A stretch of 64,000 bases of DNA from a virus (Duplodnaviria > Heunggongvirae > Uroviricota > Caudoviricetes), in the IMG/VR virus record IMGVR_UViG_3300037510_000569, positions 62,732-126,731 of that record; one strand, 5' to 3'. Below are positions 4,401 through 40,641 of the stretch, piece by piece (position 1 is the first letter of the stretch; every line of letters begins with the position of its first letter). The position numbers and the translations under genes are program-made. The notes under the pieces were generated by a model. That model had not been told where the DNA came from, ran no database searches, and saw nothing but the letters and a program-made list of their open reading frames with translations.

Positions 4401-4402
4401 CT

Positions 4403-23104: not shown

Positions 23105-23347
23105 ATGCAAAGGGCAGCCGTTTTCATCGTTTCAGAGGGCTTGCCGATGCTCTGCGAGCTCGCCATCCGAGAGTCCACGACGGCACCTGGCAGGATCAAG
23201 GTCGGCTTCGTCGCCGACATCCCTGAGGAGGGCGAGGTGCTGGCGACCGGAGCTGCGGCGGAGCAGCTCGGCGAGGTCTCCACGCTCCCGGAGGGCGCGG
23301 GAGGAAAGAGCCTGATGGGTCCCGAGTTCCGCCTGGAGATGAACTGA
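23105..23347 (+). CDS. hypothetical protein (80 aa)
   Basis: Strong RBS within the start-associated motif. Confidence 0.5.
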   Translation: MQRAAVFIVSEGLPMLCELAIRESTTAPGRIKVGFVADIPEEGEVLATGAAAEQLGEVSTLPEGAGGKSLMGPEFRLEMN

Positions 23348-24372: not shown

Positions 24373-24623
24373 GAGAGACGCGCGCGCAAAAACGTATCCG
24401 CAAGGCTATGGAAGCTCGTCAGCCAGAAAAGATCACCTATGAGGAACTCGCGAACGTGGTGCAAGAAATCCGCGAACCCTGGCGGCCTCCCCCGGTAAAC
24501 TCGCCGAGGGGCTCATGTCCCCGGTCAGGAGCGACGGAGGGCCGAAGTCTGCGGGTTATCCCTTTCCTTTTACGAAAGAACTCCCGTCGGCAACAACATG
24601 CTCGCCGCTCGCTCGTGCGCTAG
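24369..24623 (+). CDS. small hypothetical protein; its 3' end is uncertain because the frame runs into the first Y-RNA-like unit
   Basis: ATGA overlap; MRETRAQKRIRKAMEARQPEKITYEELANVVQEIRE looks real, the tail is junk-like. Confidence 0.3.
   Translation: MRETRAQKRIRKAMEARQPEKITYEELANVVQEIREPWRPPPVNSPRGSCPRSGATEGRSLRVIPFLLRKNSRRQQHARRSLVR
24530..24612 (+). ncRNA. Y-RNA-like unit 1 (minimal)
   Basis: GGGCCGAAG..GGGTTATCC 5' motif and caacatgctcgcc 3' motif; no tRNA-like module. Confidence 0.5.
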
Positions 24624-24644
24624 GCTTTCTTCGCTTCAAGAGCC

Positions 24645-24780
24645 TGGTGTCGGGCCGAAGCGGATCGGTTATCAATTGGACAGAGCGCTCGCGCAAGCGA
24701 GAGGTTGCGGGTTCGATCCCCGCCTTCCACCGCTCCAACGGTGGATGTAGCTACACCGACTGCACCCCACGCTCGGCACC
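24645..24780 (+). ncRNA. Y-RNA-like unit 2 with tRNA-like T-arm module
   Basis: GGGCCGAAGcggatcGGTTATC ... gcgggttcgatccccgc ... gcaccCCACGCTCGGC. Confidence 0.55.
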
Positions 24781-24794
24781 TTCGCTAGACTCGG

Positions 24795-24933
24795 CTCCGC
24801 CGGGCCGAAGTGAATCGGTTATCTCATGCCAAGAGAGAGGTCGCGGGTTCGAGTCCCGCTCCGGGCCGCAAGGACCGGGTAGCTCAGCTGGTAGAGCGCT
24901 AAAACTCCGATTTGCACCCCATGCTCGGCGCTT
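24795..24933 (+). ncRNA. Y-RNA-like unit 3 with T-arm-like and D-arm-like elements
   Basis: GGGCCGAAGugaaucGGUUAUCUC (near-identical to the human Y RNA GGUCCGAAG..GUUAUCUC stem, from memory) ... cgcgggttcgagtcccgc ... gggtagctcagctggtagagcgc ... caccCCATGCTCGGC. Confidence 0.6.
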
Positions 24934-24947
24934 CTCGCTAGACTGGC

Positions 24948-25056
24948 CCCGCCAGGCCGAAGCGATCGTCGGTTATCACTGGTTCGATTCCTGTCAGCCC
25001 GCACTTGGGCTGTGCTCATGGGAGCTTCCCGACTCGCACCCCACGCTTGGCGACTT
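24948..25056 (+). ncRNA. Y-RNA-like unit 4
   Basis: AGGCCGAAGcgatcgtcGGTTATC ... ggttcgattcc ... gcaccCCACGCTTGGC. Confidence 0.5.
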
Positions 25057-25074
25057 CCACGCGCTAGACTCGCT

Positions 25075-25222
25075 TCCGCCGGGCCGAAGCAGGTTGGTTA
25101 TCGGCTCATAACCGGGTGGCCGCGGGTTCGAGTCCCGTCGCACCTCCGCCTTCGGGCCACGGGTGCGTAGCTCAGTTGGTAGAGCACCTAAACGCCAATC
25201 GGCAATCCCACGCTCGGCACTT
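25075..25222 (+). ncRNA. Y-RNA-like unit 5 with T-arm-like and D-arm-like elements
   Basis: GGGCCGAAGcaggttGGTTATC ... cgcgggttcgagtcccg ... gtgcgtagctcagttggtagagcac ... caatcCCACGCTCGGC. Confidence 0.55.
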
Positions 25223-25259
25223 CCTCGACGCGACACCGGACCCTTTGCTAGTGTCGCGC

Positions 25260-25330
25260 GTGGGCGGGCCGAAGCCCTTCGGTTATCTCTTACGGAAAAG
25301 ACCCGATCGGCAACCCCACGCTCGCTCGTC
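25260..25330 (+). ncRNA. Y-RNA-like unit 6 (minimal)
   Basis: GGGCCGAAGcccttcGGTTATCTC ... caaccCCACGCTCGCT; ends about 30 nt before the Ro60 start. Confidence 0.5.
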
Positions 25331-25360
25331 TCTTGTACTCCACTGACCGGGAGGACCCCA

Positions 25361-26974
25361 ATGGGCCAGTATCTGCGCCAGCACTCCACGCGCTCCACGC
25401 CGCAGTCCGAGCCGATGAGCTCAGACCAGCGCCAGAACCCGGCCGGCGGCTTCGCTTGGCCGGTCGATGACTGGACGCGCGCGCGTCGCTTCCTGATCCT
25501 CGGTGCCGAGGGTGGCACCTACTACGTCGGTCAGCGCGAGCTCGTGAAGGACAACGCTGCGGCGCTTGAGCGCTGCCTCGCCGAGGACCCGATGCGCACG
25601 ATCGAGATGATCTGCGACATCAGCGACGGCGGTCTGGCGAAGTCCAACGACCCGGCGCTGTTCGCGCTGGCGATGGCGGTTGGCTCAAACGACCTGGAGA
25701 CGCGCCGCGAGGCTTGGCGTCGTCTGCCCCAGGTCGCCCGCATCGGCACGCACCTCTTCCACTTCGTTGCCTACATGCAGCAGTTCCGCGGCTGGGGGCC
25801 GCTGGCTCGCCGCGGCGTCAGCGCTTGGTACGAGGGCAAGGAAGCCGACAAGCTCGCCTACCAGCTCGTCAAGTACCGCCAGCGCGACGGTTGGAGCCAC
25901 CGCGACGTTCTGCGCCGCGCGCACCCCAAGGCACCGAGCGAACTGCACAAGGCGCTCTACGACTTCGCCTGCGGCCGGGAGTTCGGCGGCGGCGTGATCG
26001 AGGGCGAGGGAGGCGAGCGAGCTCTCAACATGATCGAGGGCTACCTGGCGGCGCAGAAGGCCGCAAGCCCGGCCGAGTCGGCGCGGCTGATCGGCGAGCA
26101 CGACCTGCCGCGCGAGGCGGTCAAGACCGACCACCTGACCTCGCCCGAGGTCTGGGAGGCGCTCCTGCGCAACATGCCGATCACGGCGATGATCCGCAAC
26201 CTCGCCAACCTGACTCGCGTGGGGATCATCAAGCCGATGAGCGACGGCGAGAAGCTCGTGGCAGAGCGTCTCGGCGACGAGGAGCGCCTGCGCAAGGGCC
26301 GTGTACATCCGATCGCGGTTCTCTCGGCGCTGACGATCTATGAGCGCGGCCATAGCGCCCTCGGTCGGGGCGAGGACTGGACGCCGTCGCAGAAGGTTGT
26401 TGACGCTCTCGATGCCGCCTTCTATACGGCCTTCGGGTCGGTGGAGCCCGCGAACAAGCGCACGCTGATCGCCGTCGATGTCTCCGGCTCGATGGGCTGG
26501 GGTGACATCGCTGGCGTTCCGGGGCTGACGCCGCGAGTCGGCGCCGCTGCGATGTCTCTGGTGACGGCGTCGACGGAGCCCGATCACGCGATCACCGCCT
26601 TCTCGCACACGATGGTCCCGGTCTCGGTCTCGCCGCGTCAGCGGATGGACGATGTGCTCCGCACCTTCGATGCTCTGCCGATGGGCGGCACCGACTGCGC
26701 GCTGCCGATGATCTACGCGGAAGAAATGGACCTCGAGATCGACACCTTCATCGCCTACACCGACAGCGAAACGTGGGCTGGGGAAGTCCACCCGGCTCAG
26801 GCCCTGCGCACCTACCGCGAGAAGACTGGCATCAACGCCCGCCTGATCGTCGTCGGCATGGTGTCGAGCGAGTTTTCGATCGCCGACCCCAACGACGGGG
26901 GGATGCTCGATGTCGTCGGCTTCGACAGCGCCGCGCCGGCGACGATGAGCGCCTTCTCCCGCGGCGAGGTCTAG
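25361..26974 (+). CDS. rsr: Ro60 (Rsr) orthologue: TROVE domain plus vWA domain with MIDAS motif
   Basis: RFLILGAEGGTYY, DGWSHRDVLRRAH, MPITAMIRNLANLT, RVHPIAVLSALTIYERGHS, LIAVDVSGSM (DxSxS), PMGGTDCALPMIYA, GMLDVVGFD; start set to the ATG with RBS gggagga because the upstream ORF extension overlaps the Y-RNA array. Confidence 0.85.
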   Translation: MGQYLRQHSTRSTPQSEPMSSDQRQNPAGGFAWPVDDWTRARRFLILGAEGGTYYVGQRELVKDNAAALERCLAEDPMRTIEMICDISDGGLAKSNDPALFALAMAVGSNDLETRREAWRRLPQVARIGTHLFHFVAYMQQFRGWGPLARRGVSAWYEGKEADKLAYQLVKYRQRDGWSHRDVLRRAHPKAPSELHKALYDFACGREFGGGVIEGEGGERALNMIEGYLAAQKAASPAESARLIGEHDLPREAVKTDHLTSPEVWEALLRNMPITAMIRNLANLTRVGIIKPMSDGEKLVAERLGDEERLRKGRVHPIAVLSALTIYERGHSALGRGEDWTPSQKVVDALDAAFYTAFGSVEPANKRTLIAVDVSGSMGWGDIAGVPGLTPRVGAAAMSLVTASTEPDHAITAFSHTMVPVSVSPRQRMDDVLRTFDALPMGGTDCALPMIYAEEMDLEIDTFIAYTDSETWAGEVHPAQALRTYREKTGINARLIVVGMVSSEFSIADPNDGGMLDVVGFDSAAPATMSAFSRGEV

Positions 26975-26995
26975 AGCCGGGTCTATCCTTTCGGC

Positions 26996-27166
26996 ATGTC
27001 TGAGGAGGTCCTGATCCAGCAGTACCCGCCCTTCGTCGTCTCGGTAGACCAGCGAGAGCGCTGGGATGCGGCGAAGGGCATCGCGGAGGCCATCATGGGC
27101 GACGCTGGCGACGAGGCTGTCTGGGGCGCGACGCGCGCGATCTACTTTTCGCCAGCACCGACCTGA
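26996..27166 (+). CDS. small hypothetical protein (56 aa, not in the ORF track)
   Basis: ATG 22 nt after the Ro60 stop; MSEEVLIQQYPPFVVSVDQRERWD.. Confidence 0.3.
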   Translation: MSEEVLIQQYPPFVVSVDQRERWDAAKGIAEAIMGDAGDEAVWGATRAIYFSPAPT

Positions 27167-27376
27167 TGCGCGACCCCGACCTCGAGGGAATCGCCCGCGC
27201 CTGGAAGTCCAACGCCGCCGGTGACCCACGTAGCTCGACGAGCCTCGTCTCCTGGATCGTCAACGGGCCCTTCCATCCGGCTTGGGTCGTGGTGGCTCGT
27301 GGCGCTCATCAGCCTGCACGAAGTACCTGGCATCCCTCCTGCGCAGAAAAGCTACCCCGACGCCGAATACGAGTTG

Positions 27377-27625
27377 ATGATCGCCAGCCTCAACCCCGAG
27401 TGCTGCCCGCCGGACCCAGACATGCCAGGGCAGTTGATGGTCTTGACGCCAATCGATCTCGTCTACCAGTTCGACGTGCGCGACCAGGAGGCTGCAGAAG
27501 AGATCGCCGACTTGGCCGTGAAAGCGATCGTCCAGGGGAAGCTCTCACCCGACCAGGATTACCGCCCGGTCTGGCAGCAGGTCCTCAAAACCACCGTCGA
27601 CCACTACAAGCAGGGCATCCACTGA
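27377..27625 (+). CDS. hypothetical protein; may be the downstream part of a frameshifted gene beginning at 27166
   Basis: Frame of ORF 27221 looks real from about 27330 onward, whereas the frame of ORF 27166 looks real only for about its first 45 codons. Confidence 0.3.
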   Translation: MIASLNPECCPPDPDMPGQLMVLTPIDLVYQFDVRDQEAAEEIADLAVKAIVQGKLSPDQDYRPVWQQVLKTTVDHYKQGIH

Positions 27626-27655
27626 CCATCCGGCAGCAGGGCTACGTTTTCCCCG

Positions 27656-27856
27656 ATGGGCGAGGCTGATCCGACCGCCAACCTTCGTGCCCGCATCGAG
27701 CGAGCGAAGGCAGAGCACCCCGATCCTGCCGAGCGGGACCAGGTCCTCGCCGCGCTCGAGGAGGACCTGAACGATCTCCTCGGCCGCGTCCGCACCTATC
27801 GAAGCGATGCCCGTCTTCAGCTAGAAGGCGGCGGCGGGGAGGCCTCGAGTGGCTGA
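27656..27856 (+). CDS. hypothetical protein (66 aa)
   Basis: ATG-initiated ORF of coiled-coil composition. Confidence 0.4.
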   Translation: MGEADPTANLRARIERAKAEHPDPAERDQVLAALEEDLNDLLGRVRTYRSDARLQLEGGGGEASSG

Positions 27857-28205
27857 CGGGTGCAACGGCAAGCACACCATCGATCCGTCTGACCGCAAGC
27901 GAGCGATGGAGTCGTCCAAAGGCGCGACGGTCAAATGCAAGACCTGCGGCAAGCGCCTGCGACTGAAGCCCTCCTCGGGCGAATCGGTCAAGGACGAGGC
28001 CAAGGTTCAGGAGGCAAAGCTCTCCAGCCAAGCCCGCAACGATCTGCCGGCGTCAGCCTTCGTCTTCCCCAAGGAACGGCGCTACCCGATCCACGACGAA
28101 TCCCACGCCAAGAACGCGCTGGCGCGATCGTCGGGTAAGCCGGAGGAGGCGACGGTCCGCGCTGCGGTTTACCGCCGTTATCCCGGCCTCAAGAAGAAGG
28201 AATGA
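27849..28205 (+). CDS. hypothetical protein with CxxC and YPIHDESHAKNALAR motif
   Basis: GTG start whose ORF overlaps the upstream stop by 8 nt; 118 aa. Confidence 0.45.
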   Translation: MADGCNGKHTIDPSDRKRAMESSKGATVKCKTCGKRLRLKPSSGESVKDEAKVQEAKLSSQARNDLPASAFVFPKERRYPIHDESHAKNALARSSGKPEEATVRAAVYRRYPGLKKKE

Positions 28206-28498
28206 CGGTGATGATCGGACTCCCGACGCCTGCGGCCCAGATTCGGGAGGAGCTCGCTCGATTGCGGCGCAAGGGCCTGAGTTTCGAGATCGCCTGGCGG
28301 CGAGCACTTGAGCGCGTGAAGTGGCCCGAAGAGAAAGGGCCGCGCGACGAATGGAAGGCGATCCTCGCCGACGGCAGGCCGATGTGGGAGGACGCCTACC
28401 TCCGCAACGGCAACAAGCCGAAGGGCATGGAGGCGATCACCGGCTTCTTCCTCTCAGACGCCTCGGGCGAGCGCCAACCGCTCGAGGTCCTCGCCTAG
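28202..28498 (+). CDS. hypothetical protein
   Basis: ATGA overlap; 98 aa. Confidence 0.45.
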   Translation: MTVMIGLPTPAAQIREELARLRRKGLSFEIAWRRALERVKWPEEKGPRDEWKAILADGRPMWEDAYLRNGNKPKGMEAITGFFLSDASGERQPLEVLA

Positions 28499-29673
28499 CG
28501 CTTCACCCGCCGGAACCAGAAGGGCAGCAGGTACCCGATGCCGGTCGCGCAGGCGATGTAGAAGCCGGAGAAGAACACGCTGTGATCTGAGACGCTCATG
28601 GCGAAGTTCCACACGTAGCTGACGAAGAAGAGCAGGCAGAAGAACAGCATCACCGCGGAGACCGCCCTGTCGTACTTCAGGATGAAGCGGTCACTGCGGT
28701 CGAGCTTGATGTAGACCACAGCAGGGTGTTTCTTCGAGTGTCCGGGAGGGCAGACCTCGCCGACGTACATCACCATTCCCTCGCGCTCCTCCGGCGTCTT
28801 GTCGCCAGAGAGGACCTCGATCTCGTAGTTGCCGCGGGCGCGCGGCCTGCCATTGATACGAATGAGACCGCCTTCGCTCAGCGTCATCGGCGGCGCCCAG
28901 AAGATGTCGTTGGGGGTGGTGTCGAGCTCTGGCCGCATCTCCTCAGGAACGACATCGCCGTCTGTCTGGGACTCAACCCACGCGCGCATTGCTTTGGGCT
29001 TCGGCTCGATCACCTCGACTCCGTAGCGCCCGACCGCGCGTTTGAGCGCCGCCGCCAGGTCGTAGCTCGCCCCCTTCTCCTCGATCATCGCTTGCACCGG
29101 GGTACAGAGTGCGACGATTTCGGCGTACTCGGCTCGGATGCCCGCGTGGTGGACCTCCATGTCACCCCAGGCTCGGACGATGCCCGCGACCGGGATTGCT
29201 TCGCTCTTGCCGAAGCGGACCAGCTCGACATCACGCGGGTCGTGGTAGGCGTAGAGGCCGCAGCCGCAGTTGGCGAGGGGAGCGCGGTGCCCGTCGGCGA
29301 AGTCGGCCACGCAGACAGCGACATTGCGACCAGCCTCCCAAGTGGTGTTCCCCTGTCCCTGCGAGGTCAGGTATCCAGCTGCGTCAAGTTGCCAAGCGCG
29401 GAAACCGTAAACCGCCCCGACGAGATCCGGCGGAACCTCCGGCCGCGCCGGCGGCTCGAACTTCAGAGAGGCCGCTTCCCACTCTTCGATCGAAGTCTGC
29501 TCCCAATTGGTGCGCAAGTCGGTGACGCTGAGGACCAGCGTTTCGCCCATCCCACCAACCCGAGCAGGCAAGGTCTGTACGACCACGACCCCAGGAGCGA
29601 CAGGGACATGCTGAATTACGCGGACGAGCTTTAGCGGGTCCGCTGCGTTGCGCCAGTAGGTGCTCTCCAGCAC
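28495..29673 (-). CDS. paralog-family protein (FRAW..C..CGCGLYA..GIRAEYA domain) with C-terminal TM segments
   Basis: Minus-strand ORF with GTG start; third copy of the domain seen at 11598 and 14063; hydrophobic C-terminus LFFCLLFFVSYVW and FYIACATGIGYLLPFWF. Confidence 0.55.
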   Translation of the reverse strand: MLESTYWRNAADPLKLVRVIQHVPVAPGVVVVQTLPARVGGMGETLVLSVTDLRTNWEQTSIEEWEAASLKFEPPARPEVPPDLVGAVYGFRAWQLDAAGYLTSQGQGNTTWEAGRNVAVCVADFADGHRAPLANCGCGLYAYHDPRDVELVRFGKSEAIPVAGIVRAWGDMEVHHAGIRAEYAEIVALCTPVQAMIEEKGASYDLAAALKRAVGRYGVEVIEPKPKAMRAWVESQTDGDVVPEEMRPELDTTPNDIFWAPPMTLSEGGLIRINGRPRARGNYEIEVLSGDKTPEEREGMVMYVGEVCPPGHSKKHPAVVYIKLDRSDRFILKYDRAVSAVMLFFCLLFFVSYVWNFAMSVSDHSVFFSGFYIACATGIGYLLPFWFRRVKR

Positions 29674-29676
29674 CGT

Positions 29677-29820
29677 TTAAGCGGGGACCTTCTCGGGTGC
29701 CTTCTCTGGTGCCTTTTCAGGCGCGCGCTCAGGCTTTGGCTCCGTGCGCTCTGGCGGTGGCGCGGGGGCACGAGCGGGGTCGTCTACGCGGATGCGCTGG
29801 GGCTTGCCTGGAAGGGTCAT
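29677..29820 (-). CDS. small Pro/Glu-rich protein (47 aa)
   Basis: RBS aaggaga before the ATG (reverse complement), partial start-associated motif; PERTEPKPERAPEKAPEKAPEKVPA; hand-translated. Confidence 0.35.
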   Translation of the reverse strand: MTLPGKPQRIRVDDPARAPAPPPERTEPKPERAPEKAPEKAPEKVPA

Positions 29821-29830
29821 CGAGATGTCT

Positions 29831-29923
29831 CCTTGGTCGGTTCGTTGGAGACTACATCCTGGCGCGCAACGCAGACAACAAAGCTGTGCAGCAGGTAGTC
29901 TGCCGCTACCCCGACCAAGGAGA
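29831..29923. promoter_or_regulatory. divergent regulatory region with two partial start-associated motifs, one per strand
   Basis: ccttggtcggttcgttgg on the minus side and ccccgaccaaggag on the plus side. Confidence 0.4.
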
Positions 29924-29926
29924 TTC

Positions 29927-30739
29927 GTGGCAGACCCGTTTCGCGTCTATGGCCCCGAGGAGTGCGGCCAGGACGGCTATCCCTTCATCTGGCATCGCAA
30001 CGACGGCTCGCTCGACGCTCTGATCGCAGAGCTAGAAATCGCTGAGACCTCTGGCGTCAAGCACATCGTCCGCGCCCAGGCTGCGCACCGCTGTCTGCGC
30101 TGCAACCACCCCTTCGTGGTCGGGGAGTCGGGAGTGATGGAGGGTCCTCAGGCCGAAGCTAAGTCCTGGGCGGCCGAGATGGGCGTCGATGTCGAGGTCC
30201 TCGATGAGGTCTTCGCCGACATCGGCGTGCCCGGCCTGACGCGCGAGCAGGAGATGAAAGCCCTTGAGCGCGCGCGGCGGATCAACTGGTCACGCTGCGA
30301 CAAGCTCTGTACCCACGGTGGCCCGATCCGGGCGGCGTGGGAGAACAAGGAGACCGGCGAGACCGAAAAAGGCGATACCTGGTCGCCGACCAGCGTCGCC
30401 ACCGCCGGCGAGCTTCATCAGGAGTGGCTCGGCAAGGGCAGGATCGAAGCCGCCTGGCGCATCCTCACCGTCCACCACCTCGACGAGGTGAAGGCGAACC
30501 TGCGCTGGTGGAACCTAGTCGCGCTCTGCCAGCGCTGCCACCTCCTGATCCAGCGCAAGGTGACGATGGACCACCCCTGGCCATGGGAGCACTCGGACTG
30601 GTTCCGACCCTACGCTGCGGCTTGGTACGCGCTGAAGTATCGCGGCGAAGAGCTGAACCGGCTCGAAACGCTCGGCCGCCTTGAGGAGCTGCTGGCGCTC
30701 GGCCAGCGCGAAGAGTCCGTAGAGAGGATGCCGCTTTGA
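29927..30739 (+). CDS. HNH endonuclease with an N-terminal CxxC domain
   Basis: GTG after ccaaggag; HHLDEVKANLRWWNLVALCQRCHLL HNH core; HRCLRCNH. Confidence 0.65.
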   Translation: MADPFRVYGPEECGQDGYPFIWHRNDGSLDALIAELEIAETSGVKHIVRAQAAHRCLRCNHPFVVGESGVMEGPQAEAKSWAAEMGVDVEVLDEVFADIGVPGLTREQEMKALERARRINWSRCDKLCTHGGPIRAAWENKETGETEKGDTWSPTSVATAGELHQEWLGKGRIEAAWRILTVHHLDEVKANLRWWNLVALCQRCHLLIQRKVTMDHPWPWEHSDWFRPYAAAWYALKYRGEELNRLETLGRLEELLALGQREESVERMPL

Positions 30740-31530
30740 GCGTCCCCAGCGCCCTGCTCGACGAGCACCCGCCGATGGCGGAGTGGAGCATCCTGCTCGC
30801 CTACCGCGGCTCGATCGCGCACGGCATGTACGAGCCCAACGACATGCCGACCTCGACCGACGACAAAGACCTGATCGGAGTCTGCGTGCCGCCGCTCGAC
30901 CACTACGTCGGCTTCCGCGAGTTCGGCAACCAGCGCACCTACGAGGTGATGAGCGACCCCTGGGACATCGTGGTCTACGAGGCGACCAAGGCGATCAAGA
31001 TGCTAGCCGACGGCAACCCCAATGTCCTCAGCTTTCTCTGGCTGCCCGAGGACCTTTACCTCTCCGTCTCGTCGGCGGGGCGGCGCTTGATCGACTCCCG
31101 CGACATCTTCGCCGCTCGCTCGACCTACTTCCGCTTCATTGGCTACGCGCGCGAGCAGATGCGCAAGATGGAGAGCGGCGCCTACCTCGGCTACATGGGC
31201 GAGAAGCGCAAGCGCTTGGTGGAGGCTTTTGGCTACGACACCAAGAACGCCTCGCACCTGATCCGCATCCTGCGCATGGGGATTGAGTTCCTCGACGACG
31301 GAACGATGCGAGTTCAACGCCAGGACGCCGCCGAACTGATGGCGATCAAGCATGGCGGCTGGCCGCTGGAGAAGGTGAAGGCGGAGGCTGAGCGTCTCTT
31401 CGAGCTGGCCGCAGAGTCCCATGTGCGATCGCCTCTTCCCGACGAGCCAGATCGCGCTCGCGTCAATTCCCTGGCGGTCCAAGTCGTCCTCGAGGCGCTG
31501 ACCGAACGGGCCGAGCTCCCCAAGACCTGA
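30736..31530 (+). CDS. predicted nucleotidyltransferase (Pol-beta-like GS...DxD fold, pfam10127-like)
   Basis: LAYRGSIAHGMYEPNDMPTSTDDKDL; TTGA overlap start, or an alternative ATG at 30775. Confidence 0.5.
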   Translation: MSVPSALLDEHPPMAEWSILLAYRGSIAHGMYEPNDMPTSTDDKDLIGVCVPPLDHYVGFREFGNQRTYEVMSDPWDIVVYEATKAIKMLADGNPNVLSFLWLPEDLYLSVSSAGRRLIDSRDIFAARSTYFRFIGYAREQMRKMESGAYLGYMGEKRKRLVEAFGYDTKNASHLIRILRMGIEFLDDGTMRVQRQDAAELMAIKHGGWPLEKVKAEAERLFELAAESHVRSPLPDEPDRARVNSLAVQVVLEALTERAELPKT

Positions 31531-32773: not shown

Positions 32774-33622
32774 CTATTTCGCGGCGGCGAGGCTGGCCTC
32801 CAGCACATCGGCCACCTTGTCGCTCTGGACGGCGTCGGCCGTCGCCGTCACCGGCACCTCGATTGCCTCGCCCGCGGCGGCCTGCTCGACCAGCTCGCGC
32901 TTACGGTCGATCGCGGCGTCGATCGGCGCGTCCCAGTCGCCCGCGTCAACCTCCATGAGGGTGAGGACGACCTTGCGCGCTTTCTCGACCTGCGGTTGCT
33001 CGACCTGCGCGACCTGATGCGCCAGGACCGCCTCGTCGGGCTCCCGCACTTCTGCGGCGAAGGTCAGGGTGTTGAGGACGAGGCACCCTTTCTCGGCGTC
33101 GGCGTAGACCACGCCGAGTTTCTGGCGCGACCGGGCGGTGAACTTGACCCGCAGGGCGAGCCGCTGTTTGTCGGCTTTCGTCTTGCCCTTCTGGGGTAGC
33201 AGAGCGCGGTAGATCAGGTTGTAGACCTTGTGCGCGCCGGATTTGGCGGGGACCTGTAGGTAGTAGAGGCCGGTCGCCCGCTCGAACGGGATGTCCTCGT
33301 AGGGCACCGCTCTTTCGACCCGCATATCGACCAGCTTGGTCGCCTCCTCGATTGCCTCGATCTGCTCCTCGGGGATCGGCTTGAACTGGTCGCCGACGCG
33401 GACCCCGCGCTGACGCTCGGCGTAGTCGAAGACCTCGCCCGTCGCTTTGTCGACGTATTGGGTCTCGTACTCCGCGCCGCTCGGTGCCGCACCGTCGTAC
33501 TTCACGTCCACCGAGCCGGTCGCTTTGCAGATCTGCACCGGGAAGTGGAGCAGGGGAACATCGGTCTCCGTAGCGGCGTCGAAGCTGGTGGTGATGACGA
33601 GATCGTTGTTGGTGCCCTTCAT
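32774..33622 (-). CDS. ku: Ku protein (NHEJ DNA-end-binding)
   Basis: 282 aa; resembles bacterial/mycobacteriophage Ku (core beta-barrel region plus C-terminal extension) from memory; RBS and start-associated motif directly upstream. Confidence 0.75.
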   Translation of the reverse strand: MKGTNNDLVITTSFDAATETDVPLLHFPVQICKATGSVDVKYDGAAPSGAEYETQYVDKATGEVFDYAERQRGVRVGDQFKPIPEEQIEAIEEATKLVDMRVERAVPYEDIPFERATGLYYLQVPAKSGAHKVYNLIYRALLPQKGKTKADKQRLALRVKFTARSRQKLGVVYADAEKGCLVLNTLTFAAEVREPDEAVLAHQVAQVEQPQVEKARKVVLTLMEVDAGDWDAPIDAAIDRKRELVEQAAAGEAIEVPVTATADAVQSDKVADVLEASLAAAK

Positions 33623-33628
33623 CGGGAA

Positions 33629-33661
33629 CCTCCTTGGTCGGGTTGTGCCAACAAAGTTAGC
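33629..33661 (-). promoter_or_regulatory. full start-associated motif copy (minus strand) before ku
   Basis: Reverse complement reads ctaactttgttggcacaacccgaccaaggagg. Confidence 0.55.
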
Positions 33662-33685
33662 ACAGAATCGCCTAGTGCAGCAGCG

Positions 33686-34099
33686 TTAGGCAGAGCGCTT
33701 TAGCTCGCGCAGGCGGGCTGTCGCCTGCTCTCGGTAGGCAAGCTCGGAATCCGTGAGCTTACGACCACCAGAGCCATAAGTGAGGATCAGGTCTGCCAGA
33801 ACTCCAGCCTCCGCCTTCTTAACGACCAGATAGGGCTGTATCGCGTCAAGTACCTCACGAACACCCTTAGCCCCCTGCACTGACCAAGCGTAAACAGGAC
33901 GGTGCTCGCCCTTGCCTTTGCAGCGCTGGTAGACAGACCCGCCGAATATGCCTTGAAGCTTCTTCAGTGCAGCGAGGTTCGTATTGCCGACCGTGATTCG
34001 TGGCATATGCCGCTGGCGAGAAGCCAGATTCCGATGAACATCGAGACATCCCTCACCGTCGATGAAGCCAGCGGCCCATGCGCGGTCAGTCTCTCGCAT
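33686..34099 (-). CDS. LAGLIDADG homing endonuclease (single-motif type)
   Basis: AWAAGFIDGEGC motif; ATG at 34099 chosen, or alternatively TTG at 34162; sits between the divergent ku and ligase genes. Confidence 0.65.
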   Translation of the reverse strand: MRETDRAWAAGFIDGEGCLDVHRNLASRQRHMPRITVGNTNLAALKKLQGIFGGSVYQRCKGKGEHRPVYAWSVQGAKGVREVLDAIQPYLVVKKAEAGVLADLILTYGSGGRKLTDSELAYREQATARLRELKRSA

Positions 34100-34137
34100 G
34101 GTCAGGCAGCCTACTGGCTGCGATCCAGCCAAATAAG

Positions 34138-34167
34138 TGCTAACTTTCTTGGCACCGACCAAGGGGA
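34138..34167 (+). promoter_or_regulatory. full start-associated motif copy before the ligase gene
   Basis: gctaactttcttggcaccgaccaagggga, 4 nt before the ATG. Confidence 0.55.
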
Positions 34168-34171
34168 AGCA

Positions 34172-35095
34172 ATGAGCAAGACCGTAGCAATTCCTGCCGC
34201 ACCGACTTCACCGATTGATCTCGTCCAGAAGGCTGAGACCAAACAAGGAATGAACCCAGAGCAGTTAGGCGACCACTGGACGATGGAGCCCAAGTGGGAC
34301 GGCTGGCGCTTGCTCGCCCATGTGACTGAGACCGGCGTGCATCTCTACACGCCCACCGGCAACGTCCAGGACGGGAAGCTCCTGGAGATAGAGGCCGAGC
34401 TTTCCCGGCTCCCGGCTGGAACCTGGATCGACGGCGAGGCGGTCGCCCTGATGCTCGACGGCGACATGGTGGTCCATGAATGGAACGCGGTCCAGAAATG
34501 CCTCGGTTGCTCTGACCTCACCAAGGCTCGCGCCCGTTCTGGCCCGATCACTTTCGTCGCCTTCGACCTGATCTCCCACGCAGACATCGACGCGCGCTCA
34601 CTGCCCTTCGTCAAGCGGCGGGACCTGCTGGAGCGCGTCTTGGACCAGCACTCCTGGGAGCGGGTGATCCTGACCCCTCAGGTCGCGCCGACCGACGAGC
34701 ACCTCGCCTCCTTCATCGCCCAGGGCTTCGAGGGCGGCGTTGCGAAGTCCTTGACCGCCCCCTACGCGAGCGGCCAGCGGGGACAGGGGCAGATCAAGTT
34801 CAAGCCTCAGGCGACTGACGACTTCGTCGTGATGGGCTTCAAAGAGGGTGAGAACGGCTTCACTGGGTTGATCGGCGCGATCGTCTTTGGCGCCTACGAG
34901 AACGGGGAGCTTGTCGAACGCGGCCGGTGCTCAGGGATGGATATGGCAACGCGCGTGCGGATTTCCAAGGACCGTGACAGCTACCTCGGCAATGTGCTGG
35001 AGGTCGCCCACATGGGTTTCATCGGGGCTGGCTACCGCCACCCACAATTCAAGCGTTGGCGCCCAGACAAAGCGCCAGCGGAATGTGTCGTCTAG
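34172..35095 (+). CDS. ATP-dependent DNA ligase (LigD ligase-domain type)
   Basis: Motif I EPKWDGWR (KxDGxR), DGEAV (III), FVAFDL, EGGVAK (IV), QIKFK (V); 307 aa. Confidence 0.8.
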   Translation: MSKTVAIPAAPTSPIDLVQKAETKQGMNPEQLGDHWTMEPKWDGWRLLAHVTETGVHLYTPTGNVQDGKLLEIEAELSRLPAGTWIDGEAVALMLDGDMVVHEWNAVQKCLGCSDLTKARARSGPITFVAFDLISHADIDARSLPFVKRRDLLERVLDQHSWERVILTPQVAPTDEHLASFIAQGFEGGVAKSLTAPYASGQRGQGQIKFKPQATDDFVVMGFKEGENGFTGLIGAIVFGAYENGELVERGRCSGMDMATRVRISKDRDSYLGNVLEVAHMGFIGAGYRHPQFKRWRPDKAPAECVV

Positions 35096-35108: not shown

Positions 35109-35453
35109 GTGGCTGCCGATCTCATGGCAGGACTGGATCGTCTTATCCAAGAAGCAGAAGGCGATCTGAACACCCTCAAGGAGGCCAAGCTGAGCCTCCA
35201 GGGGCGCAAACGAGCAGGGCGGAAGAAAGGTGCGCCGAAGGCGCGCAAACGCGAGACCCGACGCGGGCGCAAGACGCGGGCGGTGGAGGCACTCCAGATG
35301 ATCGAGGAGAAGCCAGGCATCGGGGCGACCGAGATCGCCAAAACGATGAAGATCAAGTCGAACTACCTCTACCGAGTCCTCGGCAAGCTGGAGGACGAAG
35401 GGAAGATCAAGAAGAGCGGCCCCCGCTCCTACGAGCCGGTTCCGACGGCCTGA
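35109..35453 (+). CDS. basic protein with C-terminal winged-helix HTH, putative DNA-binding regulator
   Basis: GTG after aaaggag; KRAGRKKGAPKARKR then GIGATEIAKTMKIKSNYLYRVLGKLEDEGKI. Confidence 0.5.
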   Translation: MAADLMAGLDRLIQEAEGDLNTLKEAKLSLQGRKRAGRKKGAPKARKRETRRGRKTRAVEALQMIEEKPGIGATEIAKTMKIKSNYLYRVLGKLEDEGKIKKSGPRSYEPVPTA

Positions 35454-35947
35454 TGCCACCGCAGTCCGAGCCACCCACTCCCGCGAGCGACCTCCAGGCG
35501 AAACTCGCCAAGGACATCGAGCGCGTGGGGTGGGTGGCTATCGGGGTGATGCCGACCGAGGACGATCCGATCGACCCCTTCACCTACACGCTCAACCTCT
35601 GGCGCAAGTTCGACCACCCCGAGCTGATCGTGACCGGGATGCGTCAGGAGGTCGCCCACTCCATGATCGCTGGTTTCATCTCACGGATCGAACAGGGCGA
35701 TCGCTTCGACACCAGCCTCGATCATCCCAAAGCGCTGCAGGGCCAGGGAGACAAGACCTACACCGCCGCGATACGGCCGGTCACGCCGACACAGCGAGAC
35801 GAGCATCTGCGCTTCGCAGACTGGTGGAACGGCGGCGAGGACTTTCCAGCGATGCAGATCGTCTGGCCGGACCCCGCTGGCCTCTTTCCCTGGGAGGACG
35901 GCTACGATCGCCGCTATCTCCAGCCTCTGCTGACCGACGATGGATGA
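35453..35947 (+). CDS. hypothetical protein (DUF4262-like)
   Basis: 164-aa ORF; IVWPDPAGLFPWEDGYD motif. Confidence 0.45.
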   Translation: MPPQSEPPTPASDLQAKLAKDIERVGWVAIGVMPTEDDPIDPFTYTLNLWRKFDHPELIVTGMRQEVAHSMIAGFISRIEQGDRFDTSLDHPKALQGQGDKTYTAAIRPVTPTQRDEHLRFADWWNGGEDFPAMQIVWPDPAGLFPWEDGYDRRYLQPLLTDDG

Positions 35948-36234: not shown

Positions 36235-39200
36235 ATGGCCGCCTCGCCAACGAATCGCACGCTGCAGGAGGTCAGCTCGTCGGTCTACCCCAAGCTCGAG
36301 CGCAAACCGGGGAAGCAGAACTGGGTTGACTACGCCGGCGGTCTGCCGTCCTACATCGAACGGATCGCCAAACACCTCCACTACGAGAAGGGCAAAGACA
36401 TCTCGACGGCGATCGCGATCGCCGTCAACACGGTCAAGAAGTGGGCGACGGGAGTCAACCACAACGGCTCGAAACTGAAGCCGGACACCGTTGCCAAGGC
36501 GCAGGCCGCCGTGGCGGAGTGGGAGGCGAAGAAGGCCAAGGCGAAAGGCAAGAGCCTGGCCGAGGCCGCTTACAACGAAGCGCCAGGCGGGATCGAGATG
36601 AGCGCGGAGGACCGCGCCTCGGTCGTTGGCACCTTCTCCCACCGCCTGACGCTCCTGGAGGGCTTCGCGCTGAACCTCAAGGGCGCCTCGACCAAAGGGA
36701 AGAGTGCGGCGCTCGACAATGCGATCGCTCTGCTGGAGGGCCGCGAGGTCAAGCTGGCGATCGGCGGCGGCAACGCCGACTCGCGCGCTCTCGCTCGCGC
36801 TCAGTCAGCGCTCGGCAAGGAGGCCGCGGAACTGCGCTCGGTGCTCGAGGCCTTCGAAGGTCCTCAGGTCAGAGCCGCTCGCCGCGATGTCAAGCAGCAG
36901 GCGAAAGGCCGAAACGGTCAGGCGGTCTTCGACGAATCCAAACACCCTCGCGCCGGGAAGGGCCAGCCGACCGGCGGGCAGTTCATCCGCAAGGGCGCCA
37001 CCGGCAGCGAGGTCAAGGGCATCCAGCGCGCGCTCGGGATCAAAGCCGACGGGAAGTTCGGCAACAAAACCAAGTCGCGCGTCGAAGAGTTCCAGCGCAA
37101 CCACGGCCTGACGGTCGACGGCGTCGTCGGCGCTCAGACCGCTGGCGCTCTCCACGGAACCGAAGCGGTGCCAGGCCCGCTCCTCTCCCACCACCGAGGG
37201 CGTCTGCGCAAGATCAGTCAGAAAGTCGAGAAGCAGTACTCGAAGGCATCGTTGGCGGCGGCCGACGCCAAGGAAAAACGCGAAAACAAGGCGCGCAAAG
37301 CCCGCAAAGAAGCTAGAAAAGAAGCAGAATCTAAGGCGAAATCTTCGTCTTCTTCGTCGTCCTCCTCCTCAGCCACGGGTACGGACAGTGGTGTCGGCTC
37401 GACGCTCGGCCCGGACTCAAGCCTGCCCGAGAAAGTCGTGCAGCTGATCCAGCGCAAACTCGGCATCGACACCAGCGGCTCCTACGACGAAGCGACCGAG
37501 AAGGCGATCCGCAAGTTCCAGCGCGACCACGGCCTGCTCGTCGACGGCATCGTCGGCACCCAGACCCTCGCCGCGCTGCGTGGCGATGAATCCCCGCCGG
37601 AGCCGGGTGCCTTCAGTGAGTCCGACTGGAGTTGGCTGACCCAGCACCAGGCCGGCGGCCAGCGCGAAAGGCGGCATGAGCGTCAGAAGGAGCATCGCCA
37701 GGAGCGTCGCCAGCGCCAGGAAGAAAAGCAGGAAGAACGCGAACTGCGGGTCGAAGAGGCGATGGTCAAGGACGACTTCGTGCGGCGCTACGGCGCCGGG
37801 ATGACTGGTGCGCCCGACGAGGCGACCGGCCACCTTCAGCGCCGCCTCACCGAGCTTGGCTACGAGCCGGGTGCTGACGACGGCCGCTACGGAGAGAAGA
37901 CCAAAGGCGCGGTCTCGAAGTTCCAGGGCGACCACGGCCTCAAAGAGGACGGCGAGGTCGGTCACGACACGAAGCTCGCGTTGCGCGGCACCGACCCCGA
38001 GGAGGTCGCCCGTCGGCGCACCAGCGAGGAGTCGGAGACCTCGGAGGAGAAGTCCGACGAGAAAAATGCTCAGAAACCTGTTCAGAAAAGTGACCAGGAA
38101 CCTGCTGAGGGCGAGCAGGAGGAGAAGGAGCCCAGCGAACGCCACAGCCTCGCCGGCGCAGTCCTCACCAAGGGCGCGGGCGTTGATGCCGAGGACGCCG
38201 ATCCTTCGGTCGAACAGATGCAGAGCATCATCGGCACCGAGGTCGATGGGCGCTTCGGCCCCGAGACCGAGAAGAAGCTGAAGTCGGTTCAGCGCCGCTA
38301 CGGGCTGAAGGCCGACGGCGTCGTAGGGCCCAAGACCGGCCGCCTGCTCGACCGCATGGCCTCCAAGCACAAGCCCGACCCGAAGAAGATGAAGGAGGCT
38401 GCTCTCGATGCCGCGATCCTCGATCGCATGGAGGCCGCCGTCGCGGGCGACAACACCGCCTTCATCAGAGCACGCGCTCGAGAGGAGCACGCGCGCCAGA
38501 ACCTCGCCGAGGCTTCCCTGCGCGGCATCGGCGGCGATCTCGTCCGCAGCTTCTACCGCCTCGACGACGGCACCTTTGCGCCGAAAGGGATGGGCCGCAT
38601 CCTCAAGCCGGGTGAGGAGATCAAGCTCCCCCACCGGAACGGCGAGGGCTCAGTCCGCGCTCGGATCGAACCGGGCGGCAACAAAGGCCGCGGCATCGCC
38701 AGGATTCTCGACGGCCCCGACGAGGGCCAGCTGGCGGCCGTGCGGACCGCTGCGCCAGCGGGGACCAGCCCACGCGGCTTCCCGCGGCCGCTCTCGAGGA
38801 AGCCCGCGCCACTGCCGCCAGGTGACCCCAGCAGCGGGGCCAAAGTGCAAGAGGTCAAATCGCAGAACTACCGCGACGCGATCAACCACCACATCACCAA
38901 GGGCGAGGACCACGCCGTTCAGGACCACCTGGACGACATGGAGAGCGATCACCAGTGGTCCGAACGTCAGGGCTACGGCAAGGCGATCGCCAACTACGAC
39001 GCGGCCAAGTCCGCAGGCGAGCACTTCCTGACCCACGGCGAGCCCCCTCAGCGGGAGTTGACCGGAACCGACGAGATCGCACGCGCGATGCGCGGCGGCG
39101 GGGAGACGATCACCACTCCAGCCGGGACTTTCAAGATCAGCGAGGACGAGGGGGGCTGGTATGCGCTCGACACCAGTGATCCAGAATCCGAGCACCTGGT

Positions 39201-40641
39201 AGACCAGACCCGGCACGGTCTGGCCCGCCAGCTCAGCGGGCCGCAGCGAGCACCGATCGACTTCACCGCCAAGTCCGACGCCGAGCTCGACCAGCTCCAG
39301 GCCTCGATCAGCGACGAGAGCGGCGTGGTCCGCACCAACGGCCGCGACCGGAGCATCTTCCAGGCGATCACGAAAGAGCGCAAGCGCCGCGCTGAGCGCG
39401 CATACCGCGACGCCAAGAGCGACAAGGAGCGCGCCAGCCTGGCCGACCTCGTGGCCCAGTGGACCGGCCGCAGGCCGCAGGGGGCGCCGCAACCTCAGTA
39501 CTCGCCGCCGGAGGGCTACGCGCCCAACGAGAGCGCGACCCAGATCAAAGAGATGGGACCTGGCGACACCTTCTACATCGGCAAATACAGCACGCCGTTC
39601 GTCTGGCACAAGCAGGTCGGACCAGAGTTCATCGTCGCCAAGCCGGTCGGCGGCGGCAAAGCGAAGCCCTTCCACATGGAGATGGCGCCGACCTTCCTCG
39701 GGCCGCACGATGACAGCTACCCGAATCAGCCCGCCAGCGCCAGCGCGCAGGAGCCGACGACGGCTGGTGACGACGACCTCTTCGACAAGCTGAAAGCGAG
39801 CATCAAGCCGAAAACCGGGCCGTTCGGAGAAGGCGAGTCCGGTCCTCCGCTGGGAGAGGTTCCGTCCAAGCCGAAGAGTCCAGCGCGATCGCCGTCGGGC
39901 AACCTGCGCAACTTCAAGGCGATGAGCGACAAAAAGCTCTACGACCTCGCGGTGGAGATGAAGCAGCACCCCGACGACACCGACGCGGTCAAAGCAATCG
40001 TCGCCGAGATGCAAGTTAGGAGCGCATCGCCGACAAGCAACGTCACTGGCGAGCACCCGGAGAAAGAGTCGAAGCCGTCGCTGCCGAAAACCCACGAGCC
40101 GCCGAAAGTCAAGTCCGCCGATGAGAAGATCGCTGCGGCTTGGGGCGCATACCAGACGAAGAAAGCGGAGTTCGACGCTCTTCCCGATGACGCCGACAAA
40201 GCAACCCGCGCGAAACTTGCCTCGCAGGTCCGCGCGGCGAAGTTCCGCATCAAGCGCGTCGGGGGAGATCCCAATAAGCCGCCGTCGGCTGCGCCCTCAC
40301 CACCGAAGAAGAAGGCGAAACCGGCCCCGAAACCGAAGCCCAAGGAGGTCGCCAAACCGGCACGAGAGACCCCGAAGCCGCCCGCAGCAGACTTCGAGGA
40401 CCTGGTCGCCCAAGGCGTTGAGAAGGAACACGCCAAAAAAGCCGAGATGGTCGCCTCTCAGGCTGCGATGAAACTTGGCCCCGACTGGGGCTCCAAACAG
40501 ATCAGCGCGGCGCTCGACCAGCTAGAGGAAAAGGGTCTTTCCTTCGATCGTGAGCAGGAGTCCCCGGACACGCTGGCCGCGGTCATCAAGGCCGCTGGAC
40601 TGAACCCAGCCGATCTGAAGACGATCGGCACGACGAGTTAG
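36235..40641 (+). CDS. giant 1468-aa protein with four peptidoglycan-binding (PG_binding_1-like) domains and long charged low-complexity linkers; candidate virion-associated cell-wall-binding protein
   Basis: Four repeats of the form GSEVKGIQRALGIKADGKFGNKTKSRVEEFQRNHGLTVDGVVGAQT; SSSSSSSSS tract; HPRAGKGQPTGGQF motif shared with the 18409 giant protein. Confidence 0.7.
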   Translation: MAASPTNRTLQEVSSSVYPKLERKPGKQNWVDYAGGLPSYIERIAKHLHYEKGKDISTAIAIAVNTVKKWATGVNHNGSKLKPDTVAKAQAAVAEWEAKKAKAKGKSLAEAAYNEAPGGIEMSAEDRASVVGTFSHRLTLLEGFALNLKGASTKGKSAALDNAIALLEGREVKLAIGGGNADSRALARAQSALGKEAAELRSVLEAFEGPQVRAARRDVKQQAKGRNGQAVFDESKHPRAGKGQPTGGQFIRKGATGSEVKGIQRALGIKADGKFGNKTKSRVEEFQRNHGLTVDGVVGAQTAGALHGTEAVPGPLLSHHRGRLRKISQKVEKQYSKASLAAADAKEKRENKARKARKEARKEAESKAKSSSSSSSSSSATGTDSGVGSTLGPDSSLPEKVVQLIQRKLGIDTSGSYDEATEKAIRKFQRDHGLLVDGIVGTQTLAALRGDESPPEPGAFSESDWSWLTQHQAGGQRERRHERQKEHRQERRQRQEEKQEERELRVEEAMVKDDFVRRYGAGMTGAPDEATGHLQRRLTELGYEPGADDGRYGEKTKGAVSKFQGDHGLKEDGEVGHDTKLALRGTDPEEVARRRTSEESETSEEKSDEKNAQKPVQKSDQEPAEGEQEEKEPSERHSLAGAVLTKGAGVDAEDADPSVEQMQSIIGTEVDGRFGPETEKKLKSVQRRYGLKADGVVGPKTGRLLDRMASKHKPDPKKMKEAALDAAILDRMEAAVAGDNTAFIRARAREEHARQNLAEASLRGIGGDLVRSFYRLDDGTFAPKGMGRILKPGEEIKLPHRNGEGSVRARIEPGGNKGRGIARILDGPDEGQLAAVRTAAPAGTSPRGFPRPLSRKPAPLPPGDPSSGAKVQEVKSQNYRDAINHHITKGEDHAVQDHLDDMESDHQWSERQGYGKAIANYDAAKSAGEHFLTHGEPPQRELTGTDEIARAMRGGGETITTPAGTFKISEDEGGWYALDTSDPESEHLVDQTRHGLARQLSGPQRAPIDFTAKSDAELDQLQASISDESGVVRTNGRDRSIFQAITKERKRRAERAYRDAKSDKERASLADLVAQWTGRRPQGAPQPQYSPPEGYAPNESATQIKEMGPGDTFYIGKYSTPFVWHKQVGPEFIVAKPVGGGKAKPFHMEMAPTFLGPHDDSYPNQPASASAQEPTTAGDDDLFDKLKASIKPKTGPFGEGESGPPLGEVPSKPKSPARSPSGNLRNFKAMSDKKLYDLAVEMKQHPDDTDAVKAIVAEMQVRSASPTSNVTGEHPEKESKPSLPKTHEPPKVKSADEKIAAAWGAYQTKKAEFDALPDDADKATRAKLASQVRAAKFRIKRVGGDPNKPPSAAPSPPKKKAKPAPKPKPKEVAKPARETPKPPAADFEDLVAQGVEKEHAKKAEMVASQAAMKLGPDWGSKQISAALDQLEEKGLSFDREQESPDTLAAVIKAAGLNPADLKTIGTTS

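Follow-up and report, generated by a model that had tools for sequence, protein, structure and literature searches.

A phage Ku gene and a divergent ATP-dependent DNA ligase gene form a conserved pair across uncultured phages, with a LAGLIDADG homing endonuclease gene inserted between them

Gene Content of the Locus

The 64,000-nucleotide stretch analyzed here (the window; positions 62,732 to 126,731 of IMG/VR record IMGVR_UViG_3300037510_000569, a virus of the Caudoviricetes) carries a gene for Ku, a protein that binds DNA ends, and a gene for an ATP-dependent DNA ligase as divergently transcribed neighbors, with a LAGLIDADG homing endonuclease gene in the spacer between them (Table 1). Each of the first two genes is preceded by a copy of the same start-associated motif. 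This layout had been proposed in a first-pass annotation made from the nucleotide letters, and it stands in all parts: Ku is supported by Pfam, a PDB profile search and an AlphaFold model, the ligase with its full motif set and the catalytic lysine of EPKWDGWR by Pfam and family alignments, the single-motif endonuclease (GFIDGEGC) in the gap by its match to PF00961, and the divergent layout by the strands of the ORFs. The two motif copies lie at 33645-33663(-) and 34137-34155(+).

Table 1. Positions of the features discussed, numbered from the first nucleotide of the window
Feature	Position	Strand	Description
Ku gene	32774..33622	minus	282 aa; bacterial-type Ku core and conserved short C-terminal helix
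Ku-side motif and leader	33623..33663	minus	GTGCTAACTTTGTTGGCAC at 33663-33645, then leader AACCCGACCAAGGAGGTTCCCG to ATG
CTGCTGCA element	33676..33683	minus	Adjoins the right-hand edge of the inserted segment; 12 nt upstream of the Ku-side motif
Inserted segment	33684..34116	minus	~430 bp; 17-nt leader CAGTAGGCTGCCTGACC and 414-nt endonuclease ORF including stop codon
LAGLIDADG homing endonuclease gene	33686..34099	minus	Free-standing, single-motif; 137 aa from ATG 34099; motif AAGFIDGEGC
Ligase-side motif and leader	34137..34171	plus	GTGCTAACTTTCTTGGCAC at 34137-34155, then leader CGACCAAGGGGAAGCA to ATG
ATP-dependent DNA ligase gene	34172..35095	plus	307 aa; nucleotidyltransferase and OB domains only
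MarR-like winged-helix gene	35109..35453	plus	114 aa, basic N-terminal half; Pfam MarR E=1.9e-5; in the ligase transcription unit
DUF4262 gene	35453..35947	plus	Pfam DUF4262 E=1e-30; conserved beside the ligase in closer relatives
Five motif cores (…GCTAACTTTGTTGGC…CCGACCAAGGAGG…ATG)	5992-6006(-), 23069-23083(+), 33647-33661(-), 34139-34153(+), 63911-63925(-)		
Ro60 orthologue (TROVE and vWA)	25163-26974		
RlaP nucleotidyltransferase	30736-31530		
LigT/2H-phosphoesterase domain	18409-22713		N-terminus of the 1434-aa protein at this position

Residues 23-209 of the Ku protein match Pfam PF02735 (E=4.9e-15, 56.4 bits against a cutoff of 25), and the protein also matches PHROG 4873, annotated as 'Ku-like DNA end binding'. 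A profile of 36 family members finds Mycobacterium tuberculosis (Mtb) Ku as its best PDB match (8v53, E=7e-22, residues 23-280), in an alignment that takes in the conserved short C-terminal helix (…LEASLAA). The AlphaFold (AF2) model, with a pLDDT of 90.9, displays the barrel, bridge and C-terminal helices of the Ku fold; Foldseek ranks Mtb and B. subtilis Ku first (best match 9ig8, TM 0.72/0.76), followed by Ku70/80. Scored against the bacterial equivalog family TIGR02772 (Ku_bact), the protein spans profile positions 12-254 of 259 and reaches 74.1 bits, below the NCBIfam cutoff of 150, and a long basic C-terminal tail is absent. Because of this low score and the missing tail, the protein is a divergent, minimal Ku and no standard bacterial orthologue. 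Its metagenomic homologues number about 60 (about 61 close ones at E<=1e-22), share 41-88% identity with it and are confined to metagenomic contigs, several of them 80-135 kb long. No paralogue of Ku, ligase or endonuclease was found elsewhere in the window.

The ligase matches Pfam DNA_ligase_A_M above the gathering score (E=5.6e-17), PHROGs agrees, and the AF2 model (pLDDT 93.9) adopts a ligase fold. Its catalytic lysine, K41 in EPKWDGWR, lines up with the lysine of motif I in Mtb LigD. All residues of motifs I (E39-P40-K41-x-D43-G44-x-R46), III (D87, E89), IIIa (F131-D132), IV (E187-G188…K192), V (K209, K211) and VI (R289…R297-D299-K300) are invariant in a 12-member family alignment. Most of them stay so in an alignment of 42 homologues that reaches down to 41% identity: K41, D43, G44, R46, D87, E89, F131, D132, E187, G188, K192, K211, R297 and D299 are invariant in both, and E39, P40, K209, R289 and K300 are at least 90% conserved in the larger one. 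This makes it a minimal ATP-dependent ligase of two domains, predicted to be catalytically intact. The highest-scoring curated families are TIGR02779, the ligase domain of non-homologous end joining (NHEJ), at 122.9 bits and TIGR02776 (LigD) at 116.4 bits, and the best single-sequence match in the PDB is the ligase domain of Mtb LigD.

We place the ligase start at ATG 34172, since the N-termini of its relatives are conserved there (M-x3-6-APTSP-x-DL-x-Q/K-AE). A public call of 362 aa (P0066, window 33902-35095) is wrong, as it extends upstream across the opposite-strand endonuclease gene, and the public call for the latter (P0186, 33686-34006) is shortened to 106 aa, thereby losing its Pfam match.

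Linkage of Ku and Ligase in Related Phages

To survey the lineages, loci were fetched for many Ku homologues and for more distant ligase relatives (L numbers below), and the genes were located by tblastn. A scan of IMG/VR with a single protein gave no match, an alignment-based scan recovered the loci, and one metagenome scan returned only 6 loci. Ku and ligase are linked in 16 of the 18 distinct related metagenomic phage lineages and are divergent neighbors in 15 of the 18, with a spacer of 126-160 bp in most of the divergent ones; in L034 the two genes are co-oriented and lie 3.2 kb apart. Pairwise identities of Ku and of ligase correlate across the 16 lineages (r=0.76, 120 pairs).

The genes flanking the pair vary, Band_7 and RlaP adjoining it in the window and in L020, SSB and Ro60 lying nearer in L006 and L035, and the pair persists even with extra genes sometimes inserted between its members. 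It is also conserved on IMG/VR viral contigs, among them a 130-kb genome with circular assembly. Ku and ligase are inherited together as a module across a clade of uncultured phages of roughly 100-150 kb, and a phage Ku with its own linked ligase, across such a clade, is what is new here.

The spacer itself is an insertion hot spot in the relatives. In L035 it holds, between motif and Ku, a 78-aa zinc-ribbon-like open reading frame (ORF; 6482-6718), in L007 it holds four small ORFs (3854-4955), and those of L015, L016 and L031 contain 420-650 bp of extra sequence.

Phage Origin of the Locus

The window has an even GC content of ~65%. Its genes include ones for a tail sheath and tail proteins, for a major head protein and for a tape-measure protein, together with 16 tRNA genes (ARAGORN). 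Searches against 50,697 cultured-phage records returned no match for the locus (megablast and blastn) or for the Ku protein (tblastn), and the nearest cultured tail sheaths, from Clostridioides and Bacillus phages, share only ~24% identity; hence, this phage has no cultured relative. An identical Ku protein lies on a JGI/Logan contig of 134,735 bp, and ~70 kb of the genome lies beyond the 64-kb window. A relative whose Ku is 72% identical (L029/L030, IMGVR_UViG_3300044705_000115) is represented by a contig of 130,043 bp with an exact end-to-end overlap of 127 bp, which indicates a circular assembly and therefore a complete genome of ~129.9 kb. Several contigs end shortly downstream of Ku; we dropped this as a hint at genome ends, the 127-bp overlap being an artefact of circular assembly.

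Another reading would assign the pair to a host-derived island, a caveat of the first-pass annotation, or to a bacterial NHEJ operon borne by a prophage. Automatic JGI annotation of the relatives does use the names 'bifunctional NHEJ protein LigD' and 'Ku', and there are weak matches to bacterial Ku, for instance in a Streptosporangiaceae metagenome-assembled genome. These nearest bacterial proteins share only ~35% identity over 61% of the length, whereas the close homologues are all on viral contigs, the circular 130-kb genome included. Moreover, the codon composition of both genes resembles that of their neighbors, with a GC content at third codon positions (GC3) of 0.89 for Ku and 0.81 for the ligase, and the locus has RNA-repair-like genes on one side and the head/tail module on the other. 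The window belongs to the phage proper, and the host-island explanation is largely refuted, leaving it very improbable.

The Start-Associated Motif

The motif reads GTGCTAACTTT(G/C)TTGGCAC, 0-3 bases, CCGACCAAGG(A/G)G, 5-6 bases and ATG. It occurs five times in the window, mostly at strand switches, and not once in 100 shuffles. Apart from the copies at Ku and ligase, it precedes an 80-aa ORF at 23105(+), a gene for a secreted HExxH-motif protein at 63888(-) and a pyridine-nucleotide oxidoreductase-like gene at 5944(-). Both copies at the pair, along with the divergent layout, are kept in the five closest endonuclease-free relatives and in the endonuclease-bearing L035. Within the motif, TGCTAACTT resembles an extended -10 element; behind it comes a fixed leader that contains a Shine-Dalgarno sequence, and we infer from this a phage-specific promoter or operator with a conserved 5' leader.

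A scan of 32.4-36.3 kb with the sigma-70 consensus gave no promoter. As a possible -35 element, GCTGC is found upstream of four of the five copies, but the ligase-side one is not conserved in relatives and the candidate carries little weight. The CTGCTGCA element upstream of the Ku-side motif is invariant in five aligned relatives (columns T519-A525) and is also present in L035; its role may be that of an operator or a -35-like element, or it may belong to the site at which the endonuclease homes. Directly after the ligase, L022 has a 365-aa gene (1635-2732) with a weak Sigma70_r2 match, which hints that phages of this clade may encode their own sigma factor, one that could read the motif. Start-associated sequences were reportedly described by Pope and colleagues in 2011 in cluster K mycobacteriophages. 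These are likewise a conserved motif at a fixed short distance upstream of some start codons; the sequence is different, however, and the motif in the window has an extended -10-like TGnTAACTT and sits at strand switches.

The Endonuclease Insertion

The endonuclease matches Pfam LAGLIDADG_1 (PF00961; E=2.3e-6, 28.9 bits against a cutoff of 23.1) and PHROG 5046 (E=5e-21). Its motif retains the Glu at the metal-binding position, as does that of its L035 homologue (AAGFFDGEGC). Translation most likely starts at ATG 34099; the mechanically called TTG start at 34162 (ORF 33686-34162, 158 aa) is less likely, as it would overlap the ligase-side motif. Intron models searched against the locus matched with no family even at E<=1, so the gene is free-standing, and its intergenic position together with this result rules out an intron- or intein-borne endonuclease.

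The insert sits exactly in the interval flanked by the divergent motif copies, both of which stay intact. Alignment to the endonuclease-free L020, L021, L004, L022 and L006 leaves one clean gap of ~430 bp. Its left junction is at 34116/34117, just after …GGATCGCAGC. On the right, the junction falls at the stop codon, immediately ahead of the invariant CTGCTGCA (33683-33676), with an ambiguity within ~33684-33692. The GC3 of the endonuclease gene is 0.60, versus 0.81-0.89 for its neighbors. An inverted repeat, GCAGCC-AGTA-GGCTGC at 34107-34122, straddles the left junction, and L035 has GCAGC-CAGTAC-GCTGC there; this repeat may contribute to the homing site, or fold into a small hairpin upstream of the start codon of the endonuclease.

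The distribution of the gene among the relatives is patchy. It is missing from 16 other lineages, which answers a check proposed in the first-pass annotation, among them the closest relative L020 (Ku 88% identical), whose empty spacer contains …TTTCGCAGCCCTCGGTTCTGCTGCAC…. Both the window and L035 carry it, at identical junctions. The L035 protein (P0187, 64% identity) is the sole close homologue among 5.8 billion proteins, and its gene has the same junctions, orientation and leader. The Ku proteins of these two phages are 61-63% identical, depending on the alignment, and lineages that fall phylogenetically between them are devoid of the endonuclease. Patchy occurrence at one specific site is what characterizes a homing endonuclease, and it implies either repeated homing or an ancient presence with precise losses.

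The first-pass annotation had further suggested that the endonuclease could mobilize the locus. The gene is itself a site-specific mobile insertion, but the suggestion was overstated with regard to its neighbors: between the window and L035, Ku is 63% and the ligase 65% identical, a divergence no lower than expected, and the endonuclease has not moved either of them. We consider it to be a separate selfish element that probably homed into the spacer between two promoters and stands outside any end-joining function.

As an insertion, it is of the textbook type. Homologues in cultured phages (27-36% identity) are small free-standing LAGLIDADG genes of Streptomyces, Gordonia, Microbacterium and Caulobacter phages, and the element type is therefore ordinary. 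The seg and mob genes of T4 are free-standing homing endonucleases as well. With such phage genes it has in common a small size, an intergenic position, an atypical composition, a patchy presence at one site and intact flanking genes; it differs from them in its location, a spacer between divergent promoters of DNA-repair genes, and in sharing 27-36% identity at most. The insertion thereby offers a clean natural case of homing into a divergent promoter spacer, and a recombination marker for these uncultured phages.

A Candidate End-Joining Module

Taken together, the gene identities, the conserved ligase motifs, the 16/18 linkage, the co-divergence and the common rare motif point to a co-expressed Ku–ligase module for joining phage DNA ends, autonomous of the host; the endonuclease would be a selfish passenger that has no part in it. 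The match of the ligase to NHEJ and LigD families, its nearest among curated ones, and the precedent of Streptomyces (PMC5124664) argue in the same direction, and we rate this reading as somewhat better than even. According to it, Ku and ligase genes would be switched on together from the back-to-back copies of the promoter-like motif. A Ku homodimer would then ring phage DNA ends, either those of the injected genome or those of breaks made by host nucleases, and would protect and align them for sealing by the phage ligase. The phage would in this way be independent of host LigD, unlike Omega and Corndog.

For these two phages, action of Ku together with host LigD and Ku-dependent circularization are established (PMC12848934, PMC4351075, PMC3706429; these also relay the work of Pitcher et al. 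2006 on the Omega and Corndog Ku), in agreement with the first-pass annotation. The papers on the two clusters name no DNA ligase (PMC3706429, PMC4351075), and PMC3706429 has an RNA ligase only. When we searched cultured phages with canonical Ku, 87 of the 88 records retrieved were Mycobacterium phages of the Omega (cluster J) or Corndog (cluster O) types, and in the cluster J phage Pound no ligase lies within 5 kb of Ku. The window phage resembles these phages in a bacterial-type Ku of ~280 aa, in a large actinophage-like genome and in the proposed holding of DNA ends for ligation. Its Ku is, however, not closely related to theirs, and its ligase is a conserved divergent neighbor, whereas they lack a linked DNA ligase and rely on LigD of the host. 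In addition, Omega and Corndog are siphoviruses with 4-nt overhangs (PMC12848934), while the window phage has a tail sheath gene. In a survey of phage genomes, Ku turned up in only 11, and ligase partners are not reported (PMC8136500). Our full-text literature search, incomplete in coverage, returned no account of a phage Ku–ligase pair.

Bacterial Ku and LigD, as in M. tuberculosis, B. subtilis and P. aeruginosa, provide the second comparison. Fold and length of Ku, its minimal C-terminal helix and the adjacency of ku and ligase genes are similar, and the core of the phage ligase is nearest the LigD ligase domain among curated families. The phage proteins nevertheless both fall short of the NCBIfam equivalog cutoffs, the ligase has neither a polymerase of the archaeo-eukaryotic primase (AEP) type nor a phosphoesterase, Ku is without a long basic C-terminal extension, and the genes are phage-borne. 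Nearest among cellular systems are the 'variable' NHEJ genes of Streptomyces, which include a ligase-only LigD, sometimes beside kuC, and for which the recruitment of a polymerase-less ligase by Ku is an open question (PMC5124664). Here too, a stand-alone ligase domain is at times co-located with a short Ku in a high-GC context of the actinobacterial type. The Streptomyces genes are chromosomal, though, and genes for the polymerase domain (PolDom) lie elsewhere in those genomes, whereas the scanned part of the phage contains no PolDom. Finally, the Gam protein of phage Mu, a Ku relative, works with E. coli LigA (Bhattacharyya et al. 2018, as relayed in PMC8136500). Both Gam and, by our proposal, the Ku described here would be phage end-binding proteins promoting end joining and end protection; Gam belongs to a distinct shorter family and relies on a host NAD-dependent ligase, unlike the canonical Ku and phage ATP-dependent ligase of the window.

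Several points weigh against an end-joining module. The ligase falls far short of the TIGR02779 cutoff (122.9 versus 227.75 bits), its TIGR02776 score is likewise below the cutoff, and LigC-like (111.9 bits) and LigB-like (94.5 bits) families follow closely behind TIGR02779. The PDB profile and Foldseek searches place archaeal replicative ligases at least level with LigD; we had tried the fold search as an arbiter between LigD-type and replicative-type ligases, and it matched both about equally. The polymerase domain, which recruits LigD to Ku in Mycobacterium (PMC5124664), is absent from the phage ligase, to which neither a polymerase nor a phosphoesterase domain is fused, and a scan of window ORFs from 1 to 42 kb detected no stand-alone polymerase (AEP) or phosphoesterase. 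The linkage has its exceptions, L008 carrying Ku with no ligase within 5 kb and L033 a ligase with no Ku within 5 kb. The motif also stands before three unrelated genes, so co-regulation is not specific to Ku and ligase. Large lytic phages usually carry a replication ligase, and with ~70 kb of the genome beyond the window this one may not be the only ligase of the phage. The circular assembly of the 130-kb relative, with its 127-bp overlap, is neutral on short cohesive ends. The label 'LigD-like' would thus rest on the best-matching family and on the linkage to Ku, the scores lying under the curated LigD cutoffs. Of the first-pass suggestion that the phage carries both halves of a minimal NHEJ system, perhaps for circularization on infection, the presence of Ku and ligase genes holds and the joint function is putative; given its missing domains, the ligase could also serve the phage as a general ligase.

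A rival reading is that of two independent jobs under a common early promoter class, the ligase acting as a general nick-sealing enzyme and Ku as a Gam-like shield, with no end joining involved. T4, T7 and SPO1 have general ligases for replication and repair, and Mu Gam shields DNA ends from exonucleases of the RecBCD/AdnAB type. The ligase family, with >177 homologues, is larger than that of Ku (about 61 close homologues at E<=1e-22), and it extends to L033, where Ku is not nearby. Searched by tblastn against cultured phages, the ligase matches ordinary phage ligases, those of large phages such as the SPO1-like ones; the 'LigD-like' ligases of the rhizobiophages PPF1 and phi2LM21 were checked for a neighboring Ku, and none was present. 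Profile and fold searches do not part the enzyme from archaeal replicative or Lig1-type cores, it offers no polymerase domain for recruitment by Ku, and the motif serves unrelated genes too. Separate roles would not, however, account for the 16/18 linkage and co-divergence, maintained even with genes inserted between Ku and ligase, nor for NHEJ ligases being the nearest curated families. Ku in cultured phages does not lie beside a ligase, so the adjacency is no general by-product of early-gene clustering. On balance, we regard independent jobs as the main rival, at clearly less than an even chance.

The end-joining module also has a stronger form, in which the 282-aa Ku directly recruits its 307-aa ligase-only partner as an ultra-compact, self-sufficient NHEJ system that circularizes genomes or re-joins cut ones in hosts devoid of NHEJ. 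We put this forward tentatively, at rather less than an even chance.

To our knowledge, phage Ku has so far been known only as a half-system that borrows LigD from the host. That dependence ties phages of the Omega and Corndog types to NHEJ-proficient hosts, and a working, conserved Ku–ligase pair would make end joining independent of the host. If so, Ku would be able to work with a ligase devoid of the polymerase domain to which recruitment is ascribed, phage DNA cut by restriction or CRISPR might survive, which would counter break-inducing defenses, and the two genes could supply a cassette of ~1.8 kb for CRISPR-assisted NHEJ editing in bacteria.

Neighboring Genes and Other Features

Upstream of the Ku locus, RNA-repair-like genes (18409-31530) lie alongside tRNA clusters and include those for the Ro60 orthologue, RlaP and the protein with the LigT-like domain (Table 1). 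The window also contains an HNH domain at ~6200-6592(+), where the mechanical ORF 4484-6592 has its C-terminal end, and a weak match to HNH within 29744-30739(+).

This setting bears on a role in counter-defense, in which the pair would re-join breaks made by restriction, CRISPR-Cas, other nucleases or the endonucleases of co-infecting phages, and circularization would not be the main role. The gene-content evidence is the same as for the end-joining module on phage ends. An endonuclease-rich genome, with the LAGLIDADG gene and the HNH regions just named, and the adjoining RNA damage-repair region would suit such a function, and host NHEJ is known to influence the conflict between phage and host (PMC12848934). 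The case is nonetheless purely inferential: joining at a cut site without processing enzymes merely restores the target, and no link to any defense system was found. We consider counter-defense as the principal role improbable, and retain the module acting on phage DNA ends as the preferred reading.

On the other side, the MarR-like gene follows the ligase, and genes of similar size occupy its position in L004, L021 and L035; as a speculation, its product is a candidate regulator. Between the ligase operon and the head genes lies a gene for a 1468-aa protein with four PG_binding_1 repeats (36235-40641), which adjoins the module in relatives too and may be a virion-associated cell-wall-binding protein. 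No Y-RNA family reached the Rfam gathering thresholds in the window. Of the 16 tRNA genes, the Rfam gathering score misses three, namely tRNA-Ala(ggc) at 28417-28505(-) and two tRNA-Ser at 3940-4019 and 4318-4401; the 89-nt tRNA-Ala(ggc) overlaps the junction of two ORFs and may be spurious.

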